Virus record (IMG/VR): IMGVR_UViG_2681813135_000006
Length of the DNA: 18,486 nucleotides
Direction: 5' to 3' (one strand)
From: a virus
Taxonomy: Duplodnaviria > Heunggongvirae > Uroviricota > Caudoviricetes
The position numbers and the translations under genes are program-made. This document shows, one piece after another, positions 4,172-18,486 of this stretch (position 1 is the first letter of the stretch; each line of letters opens with the position of its first letter). The notes below the pieces were generated by a model. That model saw nothing but the letters and a program-made list of their open reading frames with translations, was not told where the DNA came from and searched no databases.

Positions 4172-4420
4172 TCAGACCGTTGATTTCATATTATCAGAAG
4201 GTTGGGTTACCCGGTAGCCGAGACGGTTAATAAACTGCATAAAACCATTAGGAGTAAAGACCTCTTCATCATCCAGCAAAGGCCGCATAGAAACCATGCC
4301 ATTGACGCGATAAATTAGATGCCTGCCCGATGAAGGAAAGCTAAACACCACGCAGCCGTCAGACCTTCTTACAATGTCATACCAGTTGTCTTCTGACGTT
4401 TGCAAAGCTGAATCACTCAC
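4172..4420 (-). CDS. Hypothetical 82-aa protein downstream of the dinI-like gene
   Basis: GTG start at 4420 with AGGGAG upstream; no family recognised. Confidence 0.45.
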   Translation of the reverse strand: MSDSALQTSEDNWYDIVRRSDGCVVFSFPSSGRHLIYRVNGMVSMRPLLDDEEVFTPNGFMQFINRLGYRVTQPSDNMKSTV

Positions 4421-4537
4421 ATTTATGTTCTCCCTTCGAGCGACTAACAGACGCGATTAAAGATTGTCGGCAGCAGCATCAGAGGGTTACGCAAATTGCG
4501 GTATTCTGAAAAATGCGCGCCAGCCTTAAGCGCAATT

Positions 4538-4771
4538 CTAATAAAACCAGTCGTCAGCGCTTTCCCAGGTATCCTGGAGGATTGATTCAATTTTCTTTTT
4601 ATCGTCCTTGTCACCACCAAAAACACTTAACCCATCGGCCCCGGCACGGCGGATTGTGAGCCTGCAATTGTCATAGTGATCATTCAGGCGCTTAAGCAGT
4701 TCTTTCTCCAGTGCTGGTACTGCGCCTTTAGGAAGTTCTTTCATGCGATCAATGGTTAATTCAACTTTCAT
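4538..4771 (-). CDS. dinI: DinI-like DNA-damage-inducible protein; start re-called to ATG at 4771
   Basis: MKVELTIDR...LSVFGGDKDDKKKIESILQDTWESADDWFY parallels E. coli DinI (MRIEVTI...ISEILQETWESADDWF) by recall. A LexA box lies immediately upstream. Confidence 0.85.
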   Translation of the reverse strand: MKVELTIDRMKELPKGAVPALEKELLKRLNDHYDNCRLTIRRAGADGLSVFGGDKDDKKKIESILQDTWESADDWFY

Positions 4772-4789
4772 AATGGCCCCCATTGCATG

Positions 4790-4809
4790 TACTGTGTTTT
4801 TATACAGTA
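4790..4809. promoter_or_regulatory. LexA (SOS) box, TACTGTGTTTTTATACAGTA, upstream of the dinI-like gene
   Basis: CTGT-N8-ACAG palindrome matching the E. coli consensus TACTGT(AT)4ACAGTA at 16 of 20 positions; 19 nt upstream of the dinI-like ATG and overlapping a plausible -10 region. Confidence 0.75.
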
Positions 4810-4871
4810 TACCTATGCGCGGAAATGATCAACGTTTTAAGAGCACAAATTGTTAATTTTCTGTCAGTTGT

Positions 4872-4899
4872 AAAAAAAGAAAACCCGCCGTAGCGGGTT
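4872..4899 (-). terminator. Rho-independent terminator on the minus strand
   Basis: Minus-strand RNA AACCCGC-UACG-GCGGGUU (perfect 7-bp stem) followed by UUCUUUUUUUU. Confidence 0.7.
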
Positions 4900-5262
4900 G
4901 AATTAGCAGTGTTATATTAAGCGGCAATTTCTTTCTGCCGGCACAATCCCGAGAGATTCGCCCTCTGTATCGCATCATCAATGAGCACCTGTATGACCAT
5001 GAGGCAAAGCGTTATCCAACTTGCATTCATCTTTTTCAATCAGCAAAGGAGTGGTTAGTGCTGTGAGTGGGCTTTGTTCACTTCATGGTAGATAAATCAG
5101 CTATGGATAAGTGATAAGAGGTGAAATCAATCCGAATTAACAACCTGAAGCACATTAATCGGAACACAGATATTAAAATCCTAAAGTCTAGTAACAAATA
5201 GCCGATATGAGATATTGCTTATCAGTTTAAAAATCATCTATTGAAAAAATGGGGGGGAGGCG

Positions 5263-5826
5263 TTGAAGCGAGTAGAGCGCGATTTTATCTGTCTGTTTAA
5301 TTGTGTGTGGTATCAAGATTTCCCTGTGTTCAAAGGTGAATATATCAACCGTTCCAACTGGACCATTCATGTTGGCCTGGTCATGCGCGAGTGTGCAAAG
5401 TTAATGGGCGCAAGAACATTTTTTGAACAAGGCGGGCGTACCGATGCGGTCCTACAATATCCAGACAATCAAATTTTAACCTATGTTGAGTGGGAGTATA
5501 ATCAGGCAGACAGAGATAGCGTTAACGAGTTAGACAAACTGCTTGAAAAAAACGACAAGTGCTATTTCTCCACATTCATCTCATATTGTCAGCATGAAAA
5601 CATCAATATTGTTATTGAAAAAGCAAGTAGAATATGGAGTGAAGCAAGCAGGCCTTTGATTTTTTTTCTTATCACCTATGAGCCTCAAACGAAAAAACGC
5701 CGCCATTTTTTAGAACTCAGAACTTATTTTTTCTCAAACGGCAAAAGAAAACTAGTTCGCAAACAACCTGCGCTTCCATGGGATATTGAGCAACGAAAAT
5801 ACAATGTCGAAGAAGATGCAGGATAG
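5263..5826 (+). CDS. Hypothetical 187-aa protein encoded in an AT-rich island on the opposite strand to the flanking phage operon (candidate moron/accessory gene)
   Basis: TTG start at 5263 immediately after a very strong SD (GGGGGGGAGG at 5251-5260). Visibly AT-rich coding sequence. No TM segment or family recognised. Confidence 0.6.
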   Translation: MKRVERDFICLFNCVWYQDFPVFKGEYINRSNWTIHVGLVMRECAKLMGARTFFEQGGRTDAVLQYPDNQILTYVEWEYNQADRDSVNELDKLLEKNDKCYFSTFISYCQHENINIVIEKASRIWSEASRPLIFFLITYEPQTKKRRHFLELRTYFFSNGKRKLVRKQPALPWDIEQRKYNVEEDAG

Positions 5827-6049
5827 AAGAGACATAAGGTTTTCACGACAGTCTCGTTCCGAGCCCTAACTAAAATATTCTGTTCGGAGCAACCAAATAG
5901 CTCTGGCTTTGCTGTGACCATGTTCGCGGTACCAACGCCTCTCTAGGTCCGCTTCTCGCTCATGGTGGACCAAAATCAAATCTAAAATGACGTGGCTAAG
6001 CGGGAGTACATAGTGAATGACAGGATGCTCCGGGCAGCACCATACTAAT

Positions 6050-6247
6050 TCAGTTCCCGTCAGAGGTAGGCGTTGCTTCATGATGGGATGAGCGCTCCCT
6101 CCAGACAATCCATGCGACAGCCGCCTCCCATGATATATATCCATTACCGCCATTTTTCGCTCTGCGGAGATTAACTGCATCACCAAACCTTTCAATGATG
6201 AATTTTTCAAATTCTATGCGTTTTTCTTCGTCGATTGTTGAATCCAT
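6050..6247 (-). CDS. Hypothetical small acidic protein (65 aa); may be the 5' part of a frameshifted gene continuing in another frame to 5866
   Basis: ATG at 6247 preceded by GGGGAAGG. The ORF-track entry 5866..6210 overlaps it in a second frame. Confidence 0.35.
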   Translation of the reverse strand: MDSTIDEEKRIEFEKFIIERFGDAVNLRRAKNGGNGYISWEAAVAWIVWRERSSHHEATPTSDGN

Positions 6248-6464
6248 ACCTTCCCCAGAAGAGTCCTACGAATCGCTCTTATTGCATAAAAAATAGCATA
6301 TACAATAGAGAGTGAAAAACCGACGTAGCGGGTTAACTTTATGTTACTCATGAGTCTTGTCTCGCTGCGACTTAAAAGCGGAACATTCTCGCGCAAGTTG
6401 CGTTGCTAAAGCTACGGGGTTGAATGGCTCTCCATGCCCATTTAAGAAGGCATGCGGTGTGTAG

Positions 6465-6493
6465 TTGAACGTTATTTAAAACACAGATAGAAT
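6465..6493 (+). promoter_or_regulatory. Putative sigma70 promoter for the secreted-protein gene
   Basis: -35 TTGAAC (6465-6470), 17-bp spacer, -10 TAGAAT (6488-6493), about 30 nt upstream of the ATG at 6527. Confidence 0.35.
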
Positions 6494-6526
6494 CAAGAAA
6501 AATCCTAAATAAATGGAATATTGTTT

Positions 6527-6907
6527 ATGGCTAAGAAAATCGCATTACTGGGCTTTTCTGCTCTTTTTGTTGCAAGTGTTGCTTTTGCTGAAACGACAAG
6601 TAACTGGGTTGAGGTTACTACAGCTGATGATGGCATTTTTTCAGCAAAAAAAGGCACATTTAGAAATGTAAAAGGTGATTCATCTGCCTTGTTCATGTAT
6701 CAAACAAAAAATAAAAAAGTAGAGTACTACAAAGTTAGTATTAAAGATGCCGACTGTGATAGTGGATATGGGGAGATAAGATTCTTCTATATGGATGGGA
6801 AATTAGCTTTCAAAGGTGATTATGTTGCTGATGGGAACAGTGTTGGCGCAGGTATTGGTGATTTTATGTGTGGAGTCAGAATTGGACTTAACACACAAAA
6901 AAGTTAA
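6527..6907 (+). CDS. Secreted/periplasmic protein of unknown function (126 aa, Sec signal peptide, 2 Cys)
   Basis: From ATG 6527: MAKKIALLGFSALFVASVAFA followed by ETT, a typical signal peptide with an AXA cleavage motif. Mature part is Gly/Asp/Lys-rich with two Cys. AT-rich; the TTG at 6521 in the ORF track is probably not the start. Confidence 0.7.
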   Translation: MAKKIALLGFSALFVASVAFAETTSNWVEVTTADDGIFSAKKGTFRNVKGDSSALFMYQTKNKKVEYYKVSIKDADCDSGYGEIRFFYMDGKLAFKGDYVADGNSVGAGIGDFMCGVRIGLNTQKS

Positions 6908-7321
6908 ATGAGGGGCATTTGTTAAAAAACAATAGCCCCACATTAGATCAATATTGGCTCCGGCATTTCTGGATAAAAGCTTCTATGCTACGGCGCTCAT
7001 AGCGAACAATCTTAGCGCTGAACTTTACACGGGGCCAATGTAGACCGGTGTCGGTGTTCTGTATTCCATTTACATAATGTTTTTTGCGTAATTCCCAGCT
7101 TCTGGCATACCTCGCCCGGAGTGAGGAGATCATCAGGTTGCTCAGTCATGTTATGCCTCGCTGTTATCTGGGGTGATGATTAGCAGCTTCCAGATGGCTG
7201 AGACATACATAGCCTGATGTTTCGCATCGACTAGGGCATTATGCATGTCACCTTCAAACGGCATGTCCCGAGTTCTCCCTTTTCGCCGCTTTCGCGTCGC
7301 ATATTCTCCAAACGGTATTTA

Positions 7322-7879
7322 TCAATCATTACTGTTATCCTCGCAGTAGTAGTGCCGTCCCTCTGGGTCAGTAGATACATGTCCGCAGATATCGCATTCA
7401 ATTCCAGGAAGCACCGATTCTGACTGCGCTTTGATATGCAGTCGCGGTTCACCGTCTTTCGGCTCTGGCCACTGGCGGTTTTTGTTAACCGCCAGCTTTT
7501 CTACCATCGCCAGGGTAATCTGCTTATCACTGATACCGGCACGACGTTGCGCATCCCATAACAGGAATTGCATGTCAGCCCATTCGCTCATCTCGTCTGG
7601 TTCCGCAGCAGCCTCGATAGCTTCTTTGGAAAGGTGCTTCAGCGGACCAACTGGACCGACATCGCCGAATGTTTCATCTGACCATGCTGCATGTTCACAG
7701 CGTACCTGCTCACGGGCTATCGACTCCAGAACCCCATCAATCACCTTCACTGCATCAGCCATTGCGTAGCCGAGATTACCGCCGTCGCTTTGTGCTGCTG
7801 CTTTGCTGAGTATTTCGCGTATCTGGTGCAAGCGATCAAGTGATACAGGACCGTGCGCCGGGTGGTTGTTAGTTGTCAT
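7322..7879 (-). CDS. DUF550-like prophage protein (dATP/dGTP pyrophosphohydrolase-like; tentative)
   Basis: 185-aa ORF with ATG at 7879; about 4 nt after the stop of the upstream small gene. Family by recalled similarity to conserved lambdoid prophage proteins. Confidence 0.6.
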   Translation of the reverse strand: MTTNNHPAHGPVSLDRLHQIREILSKAAAQSDGGNLGYAMADAVKVIDGVLESIAREQVRCEHAAWSDETFGDVGPVGPLKHLSKEAIEAAAEPDEMSEWADMQFLLWDAQRRAGISDKQITLAMVEKLAVNKNRQWPEPKDGEPRLHIKAQSESVLPGIECDICGHVSTDPEGRHYYCEDNSND

Positions 7880-7882
7880 GGG

Positions 7883-10895: not shown

Positions 10896-10959
10896 ACCAG
10901 TAGTATCTAATTCCATGTAATAAAAATATTTCAAGATTTAATATCTTCTGGAGGATTCG

Positions 10960-11241
10960 GTGTCTAAAGAAACAACCGTCGAACTTATGCATCTTAATGA
11001 TGTAATCGAAGCGAAAAATTTCATCGAGACCAATGCTGACGGTGTCGTAACAATCGGCACACAAAATGCCGGTTACGAAGTTTACAATTTTGTGTTCCTG
11101 AATAGCAGCCCGATCATCGGTACGGATAATGCGGATATAGTCGTCAAGGGCATGCAGCGAACCAAAGTTGTGTCTGTGACTTTAAGCAAACAAAAGGCTT
11201 ATGATTTTTATCAATCCTTAAAAAGTATGTTTGAGGAATAA
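10960..11241 (+). CDS. Hypothetical 93-aa soluble protein, first gene of an AT-rich pair downstream of the repressor
   Basis: GTG at 10960 with strong SD GGAGGA 4 nt upstream; no TM segment; no family recognised. Confidence 0.65.
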   Translation: MSKETTVELMHLNDVIEAKNFIETNADGVVTIGTQNAGYEVYNFVFLNSSPIIGTDNADIVVKGMQRTKVVSVTLSKQKAYDFYQSLKSMFEE

Positions 11242-11247
11242 TAATTG

Positions 11248-11769
11248 ATGGATGCGGCTCAATCATCTCTTGGTGAAGGGAAGTTATTGATTGCATATTC
11301 AGACCATAGCGGAGCTACAGTAGGCTTAGAGTTTTCATCAGTAGCTTCGAGCCAAGCAACCTTCCTTATGGGTGCTTGTAGTTTTGCCGCTTCGGATAAA
11401 CAAAAACGGATTGTCACATCAGTTGCTATGGATGATACTGAAATCATTCATACGTCAACTGAAGATGGAGGTGACGACATGGAAAAGAGATTGGCTATTC
11501 TTGAGGTTGAAGTTGCCCACATCAAGAAAGATGTTGCCGAGATAAAAAACACAGTTTCAAAAGTTGATACGACAGTGAATTCACTGGACAAAAATATGGC
11601 TGTAGTTTTGGAGAGGCTGTCTAGTATCAAAGAGTCTGTAGACAAAAAGCCCTCATCAGACACAGTGGACAAGAAAATCTCTGATGCTAAATTGGCGATT
11701 CTCTTAGGTGTCCCTGCGATTATCGCCATTGGTACAGGGCTGTACAAAGCTTTTATGCACTTCTTTTAG
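11248..11769 (+). CDS. Hypothetical 173-aa tail-anchored membrane protein with a central coiled-coil-like region
   Basis: ATG at 11248 (SD GAGGAA upstream), 6 nt after the previous stop. Heptad-like segment EKRLAILEVEVAHIKKDVAEIKNTVSKVDTTVNSLDKNMAVVLERLSSIKESV, then a single C-terminal hydrophobic helix LAILLGVPAIIAIGTGLY. AT-rich. A strong terminator follows. Confidence 0.7.
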   Translation: MDAAQSSLGEGKLLIAYSDHSGATVGLEFSSVASSQATFLMGACSFAASDKQKRIVTSVAMDDTEIIHTSTEDGGDDMEKRLAILEVEVAHIKKDVAEIKNTVSKVDTTVNSLDKNMAVVLERLSSIKESVDKKPSSDTVDKKISDAKLAILLGVPAIIAIGTGLYKAFMHFF

Positions 11770-11841
11770 TCAGATTTGGTCAATACGCCTGAGTTATAAG
11801 GCTCTCAGCTACTAACTCTGTCGCCTTCCCCGAACCTTCTC

Positions 11842-17098: not shown

Positions 17099-17296
17099 AT
17101 GGATGATATTTTGGTAACGTCAGACCTGACCAGTCGCTACAAAATTTCACGCAAAACCCTTTGGTCATGGCAAAGTGCAGACACAATGCCTCGGGGCTTC
17201 GTATGCCCGTTCCCACCCCCTGACTGGCCCGGCAACCCTAACCGCTGGCGCTCTGAGTCAATCAAAGAGTGGGAGGATAAAAAGAAGATAAATTAA
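17099..17296 (+). CDS. AlpA-family small DNA-binding protein (excisionase/regulator-like), about 65 aa
   Basis: From ATG 17099 (SD GGAGAG): [34 protein letters not shown]...[13 protein letters not shown] resembles AlpA-type HTH proteins by recall. The TTG at 17054 in the ORF track is probably not the start. Confidence 0.65.
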
Positions 17297-18486
17297 CTGA
17301 AGGGCTCTCCGATGATCTCTTCAAGATGGCTCTGCCAAACGCGGAGCCAGTGTTTCTGATCATCGATATAGTCATGAAGGTTGTAATGCGCCATAACCCC
17401 CACCATCTGATGCCCGAGCAGCTTTTCAATTACGTGCGGCGGGCAACCTAACTCAGAGAGATTTGTGGCTATCGTCCGCCTCATATCATGAAGCGACCAC
17501 TCTGCCATACCTGTTCCATTCCAAATAGAACGGGCGTAATTGGATGCCACAGGTGAATGAACGGGCGAATCTTTGATCCCGCCATCAATTTTACGTTGTG
17601 AAGTCACCAGGTGATTGGTGTTTATTTTCTTGAGGTGATTTCTGACCAGGTTAACGGCGGCGTCTGAGAGTCCCCTTCTAATATGTACCCGAGTTTTATA
17701 ACTGCCCGCAGGCACGACCCACTCATTATCATCCAATCGAAACCATGATCTCTCACTAAGTCGAATCTCAGCCGTACGGCATCCGGTAAGCATAATAAAT
17801 TTCACCAGGAAAACGGACTCTATCGACATATGGCTTTTCAACCACTGATAGATTTTGCGCAGATCGTCATCGTCCATCCTGCGAGTTCTCTTTTTAGGCT
17901 TTTGCCCGACATCAGATGGCAGTAATCCCTCGAGTGGGTTTGAGGCGATCACACTTCTGTTAACGCAGAACCTAAAGGCCCGTTTGCACAGCGAAAGCAT
18001 GTAATGAGCCATCACCCTGCTTTCTATAGAATCGAAGACGTTGATCCAGTGCATTTTCGCTGTGTTATCGACTTTGACATTCTTCATCGGTTCGGCGATA
18101 TGTTTCTCAAACACCTGGCGATAGTAATCGACTTTAACTAGCCCGTTAGCGATACAGTGCCTTTCAATCCAGTAATTGAACGCTTCGGCAACGGACATCG
18201 CTTCCTGTCGGGTCTGCTTATCCAGCTTCACCTGCTCTCGCGGATCCAGTCCCTCAGTTAACCAGTTTCTGAATTGTTGGCGACGCTCTCTTGCCTGGGT
18301 GATACTCATTGCAGGATAATCACCAACATTGAGTTTTACCGCTTTACCGGCCCAGCGATACCGATAGAAAAATGATATTTTTCCGGCCTGGCTGATTCTG
18401 GCGTTGAGCCCGTGCGAATCAGAAATAATCTCGATATCATCTCTTTTCTTGCCGAGCGCCTTCCTGAGCTTTGTGTCGGTGATCAT
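17293..18486 (-). CDS. int: Tyrosine site-specific integrase (P4/CP4-57-like), 397 aa; start codon at the window edge
   Basis: ATG at 18486-18484. Integrase-like N-terminal region and a C-terminal catalytic region containing HDMRRT...LLGHQ...AHYNLHDY (R/H/Y catalytic residues of tyrosine recombinases). Confidence 0.9.

Follow-up and report, generated by a model that had tools for sequence, protein, structure and literature searches.

A variable cargo slot between the DUF550 and dinI genes of a Rac-like lambdoid prophage of Escherichia coli, with a predicted BamHI-like nuclease and a predicted exported protein among its contents

The DNA considered here is the IMG/VR virus record IMGVR_UViG_2681813135_000006, a stretch of 18,486 nucleotides (the window) that is a Rac-like lambdoid prophage of Escherichia coli. 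Between its replication and DUF550 genes (DUF550: 7322-7879, minus strand) on one side and dinI (4538-4783, minus strand) on the other lies a variable cargo slot. In the window, the slot (4900-6940) carries two plus-strand genes, here called gene A (5263-5826) and gene B (6527-6907), and a single minus-strand gene, gene C (6050-6247). The segment from 4100 to 7400 matches the chromosomes of the E. coli strains ES7, PSJ-22 and NCTC11023 at 99.8-99.9% identity, and in these three chromosomes RefSeq labels both plus-strand open reading frames (ORFs) as hypothetical proteins. The ES7 annotation places the lysis genes, Q, rusA, ninB (DUF1367), dinI, the studied region, DUF550, DUF977, a replication protein, YdaT and a cro-like gene on the minus strand, and the repressor, RecE and RecT on the plus strand, with the integrase gene adjoining kch. 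From this gene order, the minus strand is the early-right operon, as the initial annotation of the stretch had assumed. That annotation had also described plus-strand genes at 5263-5826 and 6527-6907 as breaking the operon, a description that holds to the exact nucleotide, with both reading frames intact.

The marked AT-richness that had been ascribed to 4900-6940 is borne out as well. Its GC content of 0.407, against 0.520 in the remainder of the window, makes it the lowest-GC 2 kb of the whole stretch, and the eight 2041-bp intervals of lowest GC content all begin within 4701-5051. Along the DNA, GC content runs at 0.37-0.41 over 4800-5800 and 6200-7000 versus 0.5-0.6 in the flanks. Gene A (0.40) and gene B (0.365) both fall below the window value of 0.52, and their GC content at third codon positions (0.40 and 0.26, respectively) differs from that of the flanks; the other annotated genes range from 0.46 to 0.78, a second AT-rich patch at about 11000-11800 excepted.

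Mapping of the segments by blastn of the region against all loci fetched for comparison (given below as L numbers and including relatives among the IMG/VR contigs) resolves it into three or more pieces of independent origin, separated by the debris of pseudogenes, so that the single island or insertion that was originally envisaged is not what this DNA contains. On its left side, 4800-4938 is conserved backbone, common to relatives at 93.5% identity, and the stretch 4544-5061 is contiguous at 90-94% identity in the IMG/VR relatives L105, L107 and L109. This backbone includes an intrinsic terminator on the minus strand (4879-4904, with the stem at 4882-4899 followed by a T run, detected in a terminator scan; fold energy -12.8 kcal/mol, z -4.6) and the 3' remnant of a DNA (cytosine) methyltransferase gene (minus strand, 4917-4965 and probably extending to about 5057). 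Annotated methyltransferase pseudogenes of WEM25, ET881 and others match the interval 4880-4965 with their 3' ends; the 40-aa ORF of the remnant has no match in Pfam.

Next to this backbone stands cassette A (5058-5971, plus strand), in which gene A is preceded by 205 bp and followed by 145 bp of further DNA. It is 86% identical at the nucleotide level to the chromosomal loci L014-L016 and 83% identical to a locus of Pantoea wallisii (L017) over exactly that span. In junction alignments, the cassette overlaps the phage backbone at 5058-5072 on the left and at 5947-5971 on the right, and both overlaps are also shared with the Pantoea-type donors; the very same borders bracket a CdiI gene or an arsRBC operon in sister phages. 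The right junction coincides with a palindrome (GTCCGCT-N10-GGTGGAC, 5947-5970) that forms a hairpin in the fold of 5900-5975, fits the pattern GTCCGCT-N10-RGYGGAC perfectly in a pattern search, and also occurs in related phages. Palindromes of the form GTCCGCT-N10-AGCGGAC are dispersed in a REP-like manner in Pantoea-type chromosomes (L014:8687-8748; L017:2624-2647 and 6728-6751; L018:4263-4286; L013:16422-16445). The upstream DNA of the cassette (5058-5262) accompanies gene A in other genomes, and this bears on the interval 4900-5262, which had been read as a long ORF-free leader. It is indeed free of ORFs of at least 50 aa, but it is not a leader: the methyltransferase remnant (4917 to about 5057) and the DNA that travels with gene A (5058-5262) are two parts of different origin.

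The third piece (5947-6341) consists of gene C with its surroundings and is common to many phage contigs at 82-92% identity. It ends in a degenerate second copy of the 26-nt terminator repeat (6314-6339, minus strand), which is 85% identical to the copy at 4879-4904 and no longer folds (-1.8 kcal/mol). The two copies bracket a unit of 1435 bp, made up of the methyltransferase remnant, cassette A and gene C, that is extra relative to the phages L088-L093; in these, the dinI terminator is joined directly to the equivalent of 6315-7006, and there is no counterpart of 4900-6314. Gene C, which is annotated in RefSeq and is co-directional with the early operon, encodes a 65-aa protein with a weak match to phrog_660. 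Proteins that are 79-87% identical to it occur in many IMG/VR phage contigs, and it shares 46-49% identity with ORFs of SfV/SfII-type phages; gene C is an ordinary small phage gene. A search of GenBank phages with 5827-6526 by blastn returned nothing, and the matches in this part came from the IMG/VR relatives. An overlapping minus-strand ORF of 114 aa (5866-6210) was judged spurious, as it lacks a phage homologue and overlaps both gene C and the cassette border.

A unit composed of a methyltransferase 3' end and a terminator hairpin recurs at successive cassette boundaries within this group of phages, namely at L105:3540-3660 and 5139-5303, at L108:4843-5378, and at 4879-4965 and 6314-6339 of the window; such units may act as portable recombination sites. 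In L105 and L108, two such copies enclose a gene for a small Cys-rich secreted protein (MKKVLV...CSGKKGG...).

Further to the right, 6377-7270 is a patch of DNA from the integrase end of a Citrobacter-type prophage, with 93.5% identity over 894 nt to L053-L056. In these prophages, int and gene B lie on one strand and are followed on the other by genes for an excisionase-like HTH_17 protein and an Rv2179c-like exoribonuclease. Their order is retained in the window, and three of the four genes are broken. The last 14 codons and the stop codon of the integrase gene remain at 6379-6423 (plus strand), where the translation reads RNILAQVALLKLRG before the stop, compared with RSILAQVALLRRRS before the stop at the end of the L053 integrase. 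The excisionase-like gene (6948-7149, minus strand) is a pseudogene with a 1-nt insertion, a single inserted C relative to the intact 66-aa gene of L053, and its two overlapping ORFs match phrog_4745 at consecutive profile positions. Of the Rv2179c-like 3'-5' exoribonuclease gene, present in L053 as an intact 190-aa gene, the C-terminal 37 codons are left (7151-7264, minus strand; PF16473, profile positions 153-177 of 177), and RefSeq annotates this remnant as a pseudogene. At its 5' end (7732-7881), the DUF550 gene shares 95-96% identity with that of an unrelated gene, 280 aa in length, in the Citrobacter prophages, and this shared N-terminal module may be the other crossover point for the patch that carries gene B. 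The prophage's own integrase gene (17293-18486, minus strand) is convergent with the recE/recT operon, and the same convergent layout is found around gene B in the Citrobacter prophages.

Alignment to related prophages, which had been proposed as a check, finds the segment to be variable and the relatives to hold quite different content. It is present in only 3 of 5426 complete E. coli genomes; in 55 further E. coli genomes, and likewise in phage mEp237, the match on the dinI side extends only to 4938 or 4965 before the sequences diverge. Relatives whose flanks are 87-98% identical have other content in the slot, or none. It holds only the methyltransferase stub beside replication gene P in WEM25, an ImmA/IrrE peptidase gene and a hypothetical gene in ET881, and tRNA-Ile with small ORFs in ECCWS199. 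Where genes A, C and B do occur together, in three E. coli genomes and eight IMG/VR contigs, their arrangement is 99-100% conserved.

The sub-slot occupied by cassette A is itself exchanged. The DNA between the equivalents of 5061 and 5947 in L105 and L108 encodes a 126-aa CdiI immunity protein (PF24172, E 5e-34), and in L107 and L109 the sub-slot is filled by about 3 kb with arsR, arsB, arsC and an FMN reductase gene (L107:4303-7262). The CdiI gene (L105:4373-4753; L108:4373-4753) is an orphan, unaccompanied by a CdiA toxin gene and located exactly at the position of cassette A; it would give prophage-borne immunity to contact-dependent inhibition. The complete arsR-arsB-arsC cluster of L107 and L109 represents host-type metal-resistance genes captured by a lambdoid phage. 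The cargo types found across the slot therefore comprise CdiI immunity, an ars operon, tRNA-Ile, an ImmA/IrrE protein, small secreted proteins and nuclease A. The presence of an ars operon or a CdiI gene in relatives speaks for a general cargo slot and not for a dedicated defence site; no PADLOC model matched the genes of the region, for which a defence insertion had also been considered at the outset.

Both plus-strand genes recur elsewhere in unrelated surroundings: in chromosomes of Pantoea and Pseudomonas, in Pseudomonas phages, on E. coli plasmids, and at the ends of Citrobacter and Klebsiella prophages. With the variable position and the deviant composition, this makes the initial suggestion of a horizontally acquired moron right in substance. 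We hold the architecture and origin of the region, as set out above, with high confidence. As an overall explanation, we consider it likely that the cargo slot of a Rac-like lambdoid prophage acquired its contents piece by piece, through recombination both with bacterial chromosomes and with other phages. The exchange of cargo would have proceeded by recombination across short shared sequences, and one may speculate that the prophage's own RecE/RecT proteins aid in this process. As genes A and B oppose the early operon, signals of their own could drive their transcription in the repressed prophage; once it is induced, early transcription running antisense through both would tend to silence them, and a lowered expression of a nuclease during phage replication would be convenient for the phage. 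Morons are independent transcription units that are spread among phages horizontally (PMC3594210), and accessory loci are often expressed during lysogeny (PMC7067206); the expression logic proposed here for genes A and B is consistent with such known accessory loci.

When compared with the classical morons of lambdoid phages, such as bor and lom of lambda (for the concept, see PMC3594210), the region is alike in that extra genes of deviant composition sit between conserved phage genes, are absent from close relatives, and have spread horizontally. Gene B has its own promoter candidate and a flanking hairpin, and its orientation would permit expression from a repressed prophage. The region differs from morons in being a patchwork of cassettes and broken genes instead of one tidy unit and in that no promoter was identified for gene A; furthermore, bor and lom occupy sites in the late region, whereas this slot is located downstream of the replication genes and upstream of dinI/ninB. 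The slot also resembles the cargo hotspots of P2-like phages and P4-like satellites (PMC9122126) in its fixed position, its conserved flanks and the swapping of unrelated cargo among close relatives, but phage family and position are different, and the cargo is not mainly concerned with defence.

Gene A is translated from a TTG start codon, which is kept in all five aligned enterobacterial copies, into a protein of 187 aa that is predicted to be a solitary PD-(D/E)xK nuclease of the BamHI class, the PD-(D/E)xK fold being the catalytic core of restriction enzymes. Neither the protein nor its distant homologues gave a match in Pfam, NCBIfam or PADLOC (models of PADLOC-DB v2.0.0), and the protein itself has none among the PHROGs. 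Its family is small: 34 matches came from a search of 5.8 billion proteins, and a profile search of 1.84 billion proteins yielded 185 cluster representatives; homologues are found in Pantoea (95% identity), Pseudomonas (45-61%), Dehalococcoidia (31-37%) and phages. The dN/dS ratio against four homologues is 0.05-0.06. The AlphaFold2 model (pLDDT 88, pTM 0.86) is a single domain whose fold matches BamHI, BstYI, OkrAI and BglII, with BamHI and OkrAI as the closest. In an alignment of 54 sequences down to 24% identity, only E55, E76 and E78 are invariant, while D61 is conserved in at least 90% of them. D61 is positioned in the model immediately before strand 62-65, and E76-W-E78 lies within the next strand (71-81), a placement that is canonical for PD-(D/E)xK enzymes.

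The catalytic residues of BamHI are Glu77/Asp94/Glu111/Glu113 and those of OkrAI Glu71/Asp86/Glu99/Glu101; few restriction enzymes have a Glu as the last catalytic residue, which apart from these two is known only from isoschizomers of BamHI and from BtsCI (PMC3025578). Judged from the model, the conserved E..D..ExE residues of gene A appear to correspond to the unusual active site of BamHI, and motif and best structural neighbours (BamHI, OkrAI) agree with each other, though sequence comparison finds nothing. By predicted fold and conserved residues, the protein would thus possess the PD-(D/E)xK core of a type II restriction endonuclease, and we lean towards it being a catalytically active nuclease. 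It differs from the type IIP enzymes BamHI and OkrAI (PDB 1bam, 3odh) in lacking sequence similarity to them, in the spacing between the first Glu and the Asp (6 residues versus 15-17), and in the lack of an adjacent or conserved methyltransferase gene in any examined locus.

The absence of a partner is a consistent feature of gene A. Neighbour clustering over 34 loci from three phyla yielded no methyltransferase or other conserved partner; the sole recurrent neighbour, a CoA-transferase gene in Dehalococcoidia, reflects local synteny and not a partnership. As far as the neighbourhoods tell, no cognate methyltransferase stands beside gene A, and the window holds only the 3' stub of the phage methyltransferase gene. 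A gene for a cyclic-oligonucleotide synthase was found neither in the window nor in any fetched locus near gene A. In most loci, the GC content of gene A is below that of its surroundings. Two Pseudomonas phage contigs carry a homologue (56-60% identity) alone and on the opposite strand between the genes for an HNH endonuclease and the small terminase (L068:6001-6564, L069:6001-6561), and in another contig it has a TraI_2 relaxase gene on one side and, on the other, a gene that encodes KilA-N and ORF11CD3 domains. From these contexts, we conclude that gene A very probably moves as a single-gene cassette. A possible role of the DNA upstream of gene A as a conserved regulatory RNA was rejected, since the conservation of this DNA is limited to the close Pantoea-type copies and does not extend to L013 or to Pseudomonas; an Rfam scan of 4300-7400 at E values up to 1 found no RNA family. 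A 24-nt complementarity between 5107-5130 and 5656-5679 was likewise dropped, since neither L014 nor L017 shows compensatory changes.

Gene B encodes a 126-aa protein that is predicted to be exported and to adopt a fold like that of protein E (surface adhesin E). The signal peptide, which ends VAFA|ETT without a lipobox cysteine, is conserved across the family, and the protein has two conserved cysteines, C77 and C115. Its AlphaFold2 model has a pLDDT of 84, with low confidence only in the signal peptide, and the top matches in a Foldseek search of BFVD are phage proteins named 'Surface-adhesin protein E' (E about 1e-3, TM about 0.5). Two independent fold searches converge on protein E, so that the modelled structure would have the fold of the Adhesin_E family. 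Sequence-based searches gave no match in Pfam at E values up to 0.1, nor in PHROG, PADLOC or NCBIfam, and neither sequence nor profile searches of the PDB found one; no precomputed Pfam domain is present on any of the family members listed. The dN/dS ratio of gene B is 0.15-0.19. In contrast to protein E of Haemophilus influenzae and the phage proteins resembling surface adhesin E (PDB 3zh5; PMC6652776), gene B has neither a lipobox cysteine nor a sequence or Pfam match, and the named members of its family are confined to Enterobacteriaceae. The missing lipobox cysteine leads to the prediction of a soluble periplasmic protein instead of a surface lipoprotein.

The surroundings of gene B are always mobile, near integrase or recombinase genes at the ends of elements or near insertion sequence (IS) elements on plasmids. 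The gene follows the integrase gene in Citrobacter prophages; in Klebsiella and E. coli it adjoins a gene for a YecR lipoprotein where small prophage-like elements end, and on 108-kb E. coli plasmids its neighbour is IS3. A promoter scan detected a sigma-70-like candidate for gene B on the plus strand at 6465-6493 (TTGAAC, 17-nt spacer, TAGAAT); the homology to plasmid and prophage copies of the gene starts at 6464, and the promoter candidate hence travels with it. Downstream, a stable hairpin that is terminator-like in both directions (6907-6944; -16.5 kcal/mol, z -5.1 on the plus strand; -17.1 kcal/mol, z -4.4 on the minus strand) separates gene B from the convergent excisionase-like pseudogene. 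Gene B fits the classical moron pattern. Its product would be exported by the Sec system to the periplasm, would probably be disulfide-bonded there, and might alter a property of the envelope. From fold and location, adhesion, an interaction with serum or the blocking of phage entry come into consideration; that gene B is an envelope conversion factor seems to us a plausible proposal, which we nonetheless advance with some reserve.

As to the role of gene A, the protein most likely is a Mg2+-dependent DNA endonuclease with a BamHI-type E/D/ExE site that would work without a cognate methyltransferase. The cutting of foreign or modified DNA in a restriction-like or exclusion role would be its likeliest task, and the conserved TTG start might keep its level low. 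By its predicted nuclease fold, gene A would be the sole credible defence candidate of the region. Genes for solitary restriction endonucleases form a recognised class for which good explanations are lacking (PMC3488263). Gene A shares with the solitary and type IV restriction endonucleases carried by prophages that it is a lone nuclease gene on a mobile element without a methyltransferase, and enzymes of this kind offer a way in which a restriction-like activity can be tolerated without self-protection. McrA of prophage e14, for instance, is a solitary, prophage-carried HNH enzyme of the modification-dependent (type IV) class. In contrast to McrA, gene A shows no recognisable domain for binding modified bases, and no separate module for reading them is visible in its 187-aa single-domain model. 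It also differs from NucC, the cyclic-trinucleotide-activated effector of CBASS and type III CRISPR systems (PDB 6p7p, 7zgv), in being about 55 residues shorter and in having neither a signalling gene nearby nor a match in PADLOC. The most attractive reading of gene A would be a restriction-like function without a methyltransferase, such as one conditional on modification of the DNA or on activation. That the protein acts in anti-phage or anti-plasmid restriction can be put forward only tentatively. Somewhat more doubtful is the wider proposal of a new family founded by gene A, made up of restriction-like defence nucleases with a BamHI-type ExE site that are encoded by one gene, independent of a methyltransferase, carried as lysogeny-expressed cargo by phages of Enterobacteria and Pseudomonas and silenced by antisense early transcription during prophage replication. 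A bolder variant would have gene A recognise the palindromes at the borders of its own cassette and thereby promote its own spread.

Several points weigh against such a role for gene A and against the functions proposed for the cargo as a whole. Sequence and profile searches of the PDB detect no similarity of gene A to any solved structure, and hhalign of the family against the BamHI sequence gave no signal (probability 0.6%); the proposed equivalence of its active site with that of BamHI is drawn from the fold, from the place of the residues in the secondary structure and from their conservation. No consensus promoter came up in the promoter scan of the DNA upstream of gene A, where only a conserved block is present, with hairpins downstream of the gene. 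The missing lipobox and the lack of any sequence match to protein E count against the assignment of gene B. Moreover, several Pseudomonas species keep a homologue of gene A at a conserved chromosomal position among metabolic genes, a setting that would fit a defence gene and a housekeeping nuclease equally. The ars genes in the slot of sister phages imply that the cargo need not concern phages at all. Finally, the prophage shows decay in the form of pseudogenes and of an IS1 end among the lysis genes, and selection on genes A and B is therefore not guaranteed in this particular lineage.

The conserved position in Pseudomonas and the ars operon point to a serious rival for gene A, namely a captured chromosomal housekeeping or repair nuclease without a role in the life of the phage, picked up by a slot that takes in host DNA as it did with arsRBC in L107 and L109. 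The position beside the CoA-transferase gene in Dehalococcoidia and the lack of a match to any defence model fit this possibility, whose standing we rate as low but real. Nevertheless, the family is rare and patchy, as the 185 cluster representatives attest, its GC content is mostly below that of its surroundings, and it recurs alone and on the opposite strand in unrelated Pseudomonas phages as well as beside TraI_2 relaxase and KilA-N genes. Rarity, low GC content and lone phage copies are what one expects of a mobile accessory gene, not of a core repair function.

It is improbable that the stretch is merely the decay debris of a dying prophage in which genes A and B are no longer functional. 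Such an account would draw on the four remnants and pseudogenes within 2.4 kb (the methyltransferase tail, the integrase tail, the frameshifted excisionase-like gene and the exonuclease stub) and on the truncation of a lysis gene and the presence of an IS1 end in other parts of the prophage. Set against this, the ORFs of genes A and B are intact and retain all conserved catalytic and cysteine residues, the dN/dS ratios given above indicate purifying selection on both families, and the arrangement is almost invariant in the E. coli genomes and IMG/VR contigs that possess it.

Even less probable is a selfish, homing-type endonuclease that would cut the flanking palindromes in "empty" phages or chromosomes and be copied in by repair. 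BamHI-class enzymes are homodimers that read palindromes, cassette A is bounded by the GTCCGCT-N10-AGCGGAC palindrome family, which is also present at the equivalent sites of phages without gene A, and the presence/absence polymorphism of the cassette has exact junctions. However, the palindromes are dispersed elsewhere in Pantoea-type loci, without gene A, and are absent from all six scanned Pseudomonas loci, which do bear the gene (L004, L019, L024, L068-L070); the ars and CdiI cargo between the same junctions is not explicable by the activity of gene A, which, in addition, is stably syntenic in Pseudomonas. The notion that the whole 2 kb is one multi-gene defence system, which the adjacency of A, C and B and their conserved arrangement in the few genomes that have them might suggest, is already contradicted by the separate occurrence of its parts and can hardly be credited, given that gene A stands alone in about 40 loci, gene C occurs with CdiI or ars cargo, gene B is found with int/xis in Citrobacter, with YecR in Klebsiella and E. 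coli elements, with IS elements on a plasmid, and in L088-L093 without A or C, and PADLOC matches none of the three.

Some further features of the prophage deserve mention. Directly upstream of dinI lies a near-perfect LexA-box-like palindrome on the minus strand (TACTGTGTTTTTATACAGTA, 4790-4809), read from the sequence; it fits TACTG-N10-CAGTA, the LexA box consensus, and belongs to the conserved backbone to the left of the variable region. With this palindrome and with the terminator at 4882-4899 insulating it from the early operon, dinI looks to be under SOS control by itself. The second AT-rich patch (10900-11800, GC content 0.40) contains two plus-strand genes (10987-11241 and 11248-11769) directly after the repressor gene, a position at which lambdoid phages often keep exclusion genes that are expressed during lysogeny; their proteins gave only weak coiled-coil-type matches in Pfam and PADLOC. 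At 57-129, the first 63 nt of IS1, 100% identical to the IS1A end in the plasmid locus L002, are followed by ten Ns, which indicates an IS1 insertion and an assembly gap within the lysis-gene region of the prophage.

Taken as a whole, the region is an ordinary phenomenon, a new example of the known variable cargo of temperate phages. Within it, gene A represents a rare and unannotated family that combines a predicted BamHI-like fold, an unusual all-acidic motif of the BamHI type, strong purifying selection, the lack of a methyltransferase gene in the examined loci, and carriage by unrelated phages; an answer to the questions of its substrate and of how the cell tolerates it could add a compact nuclease to the toolbox of defence systems or enzymes. 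The slot itself offers an unusually clean natural case of cassette exchange, with a nuclease gene, a CdiI gene and an ars operon alternating between the same two short junctions, and is thus well suited for studies of the capture of host genes by lambdoid phages.

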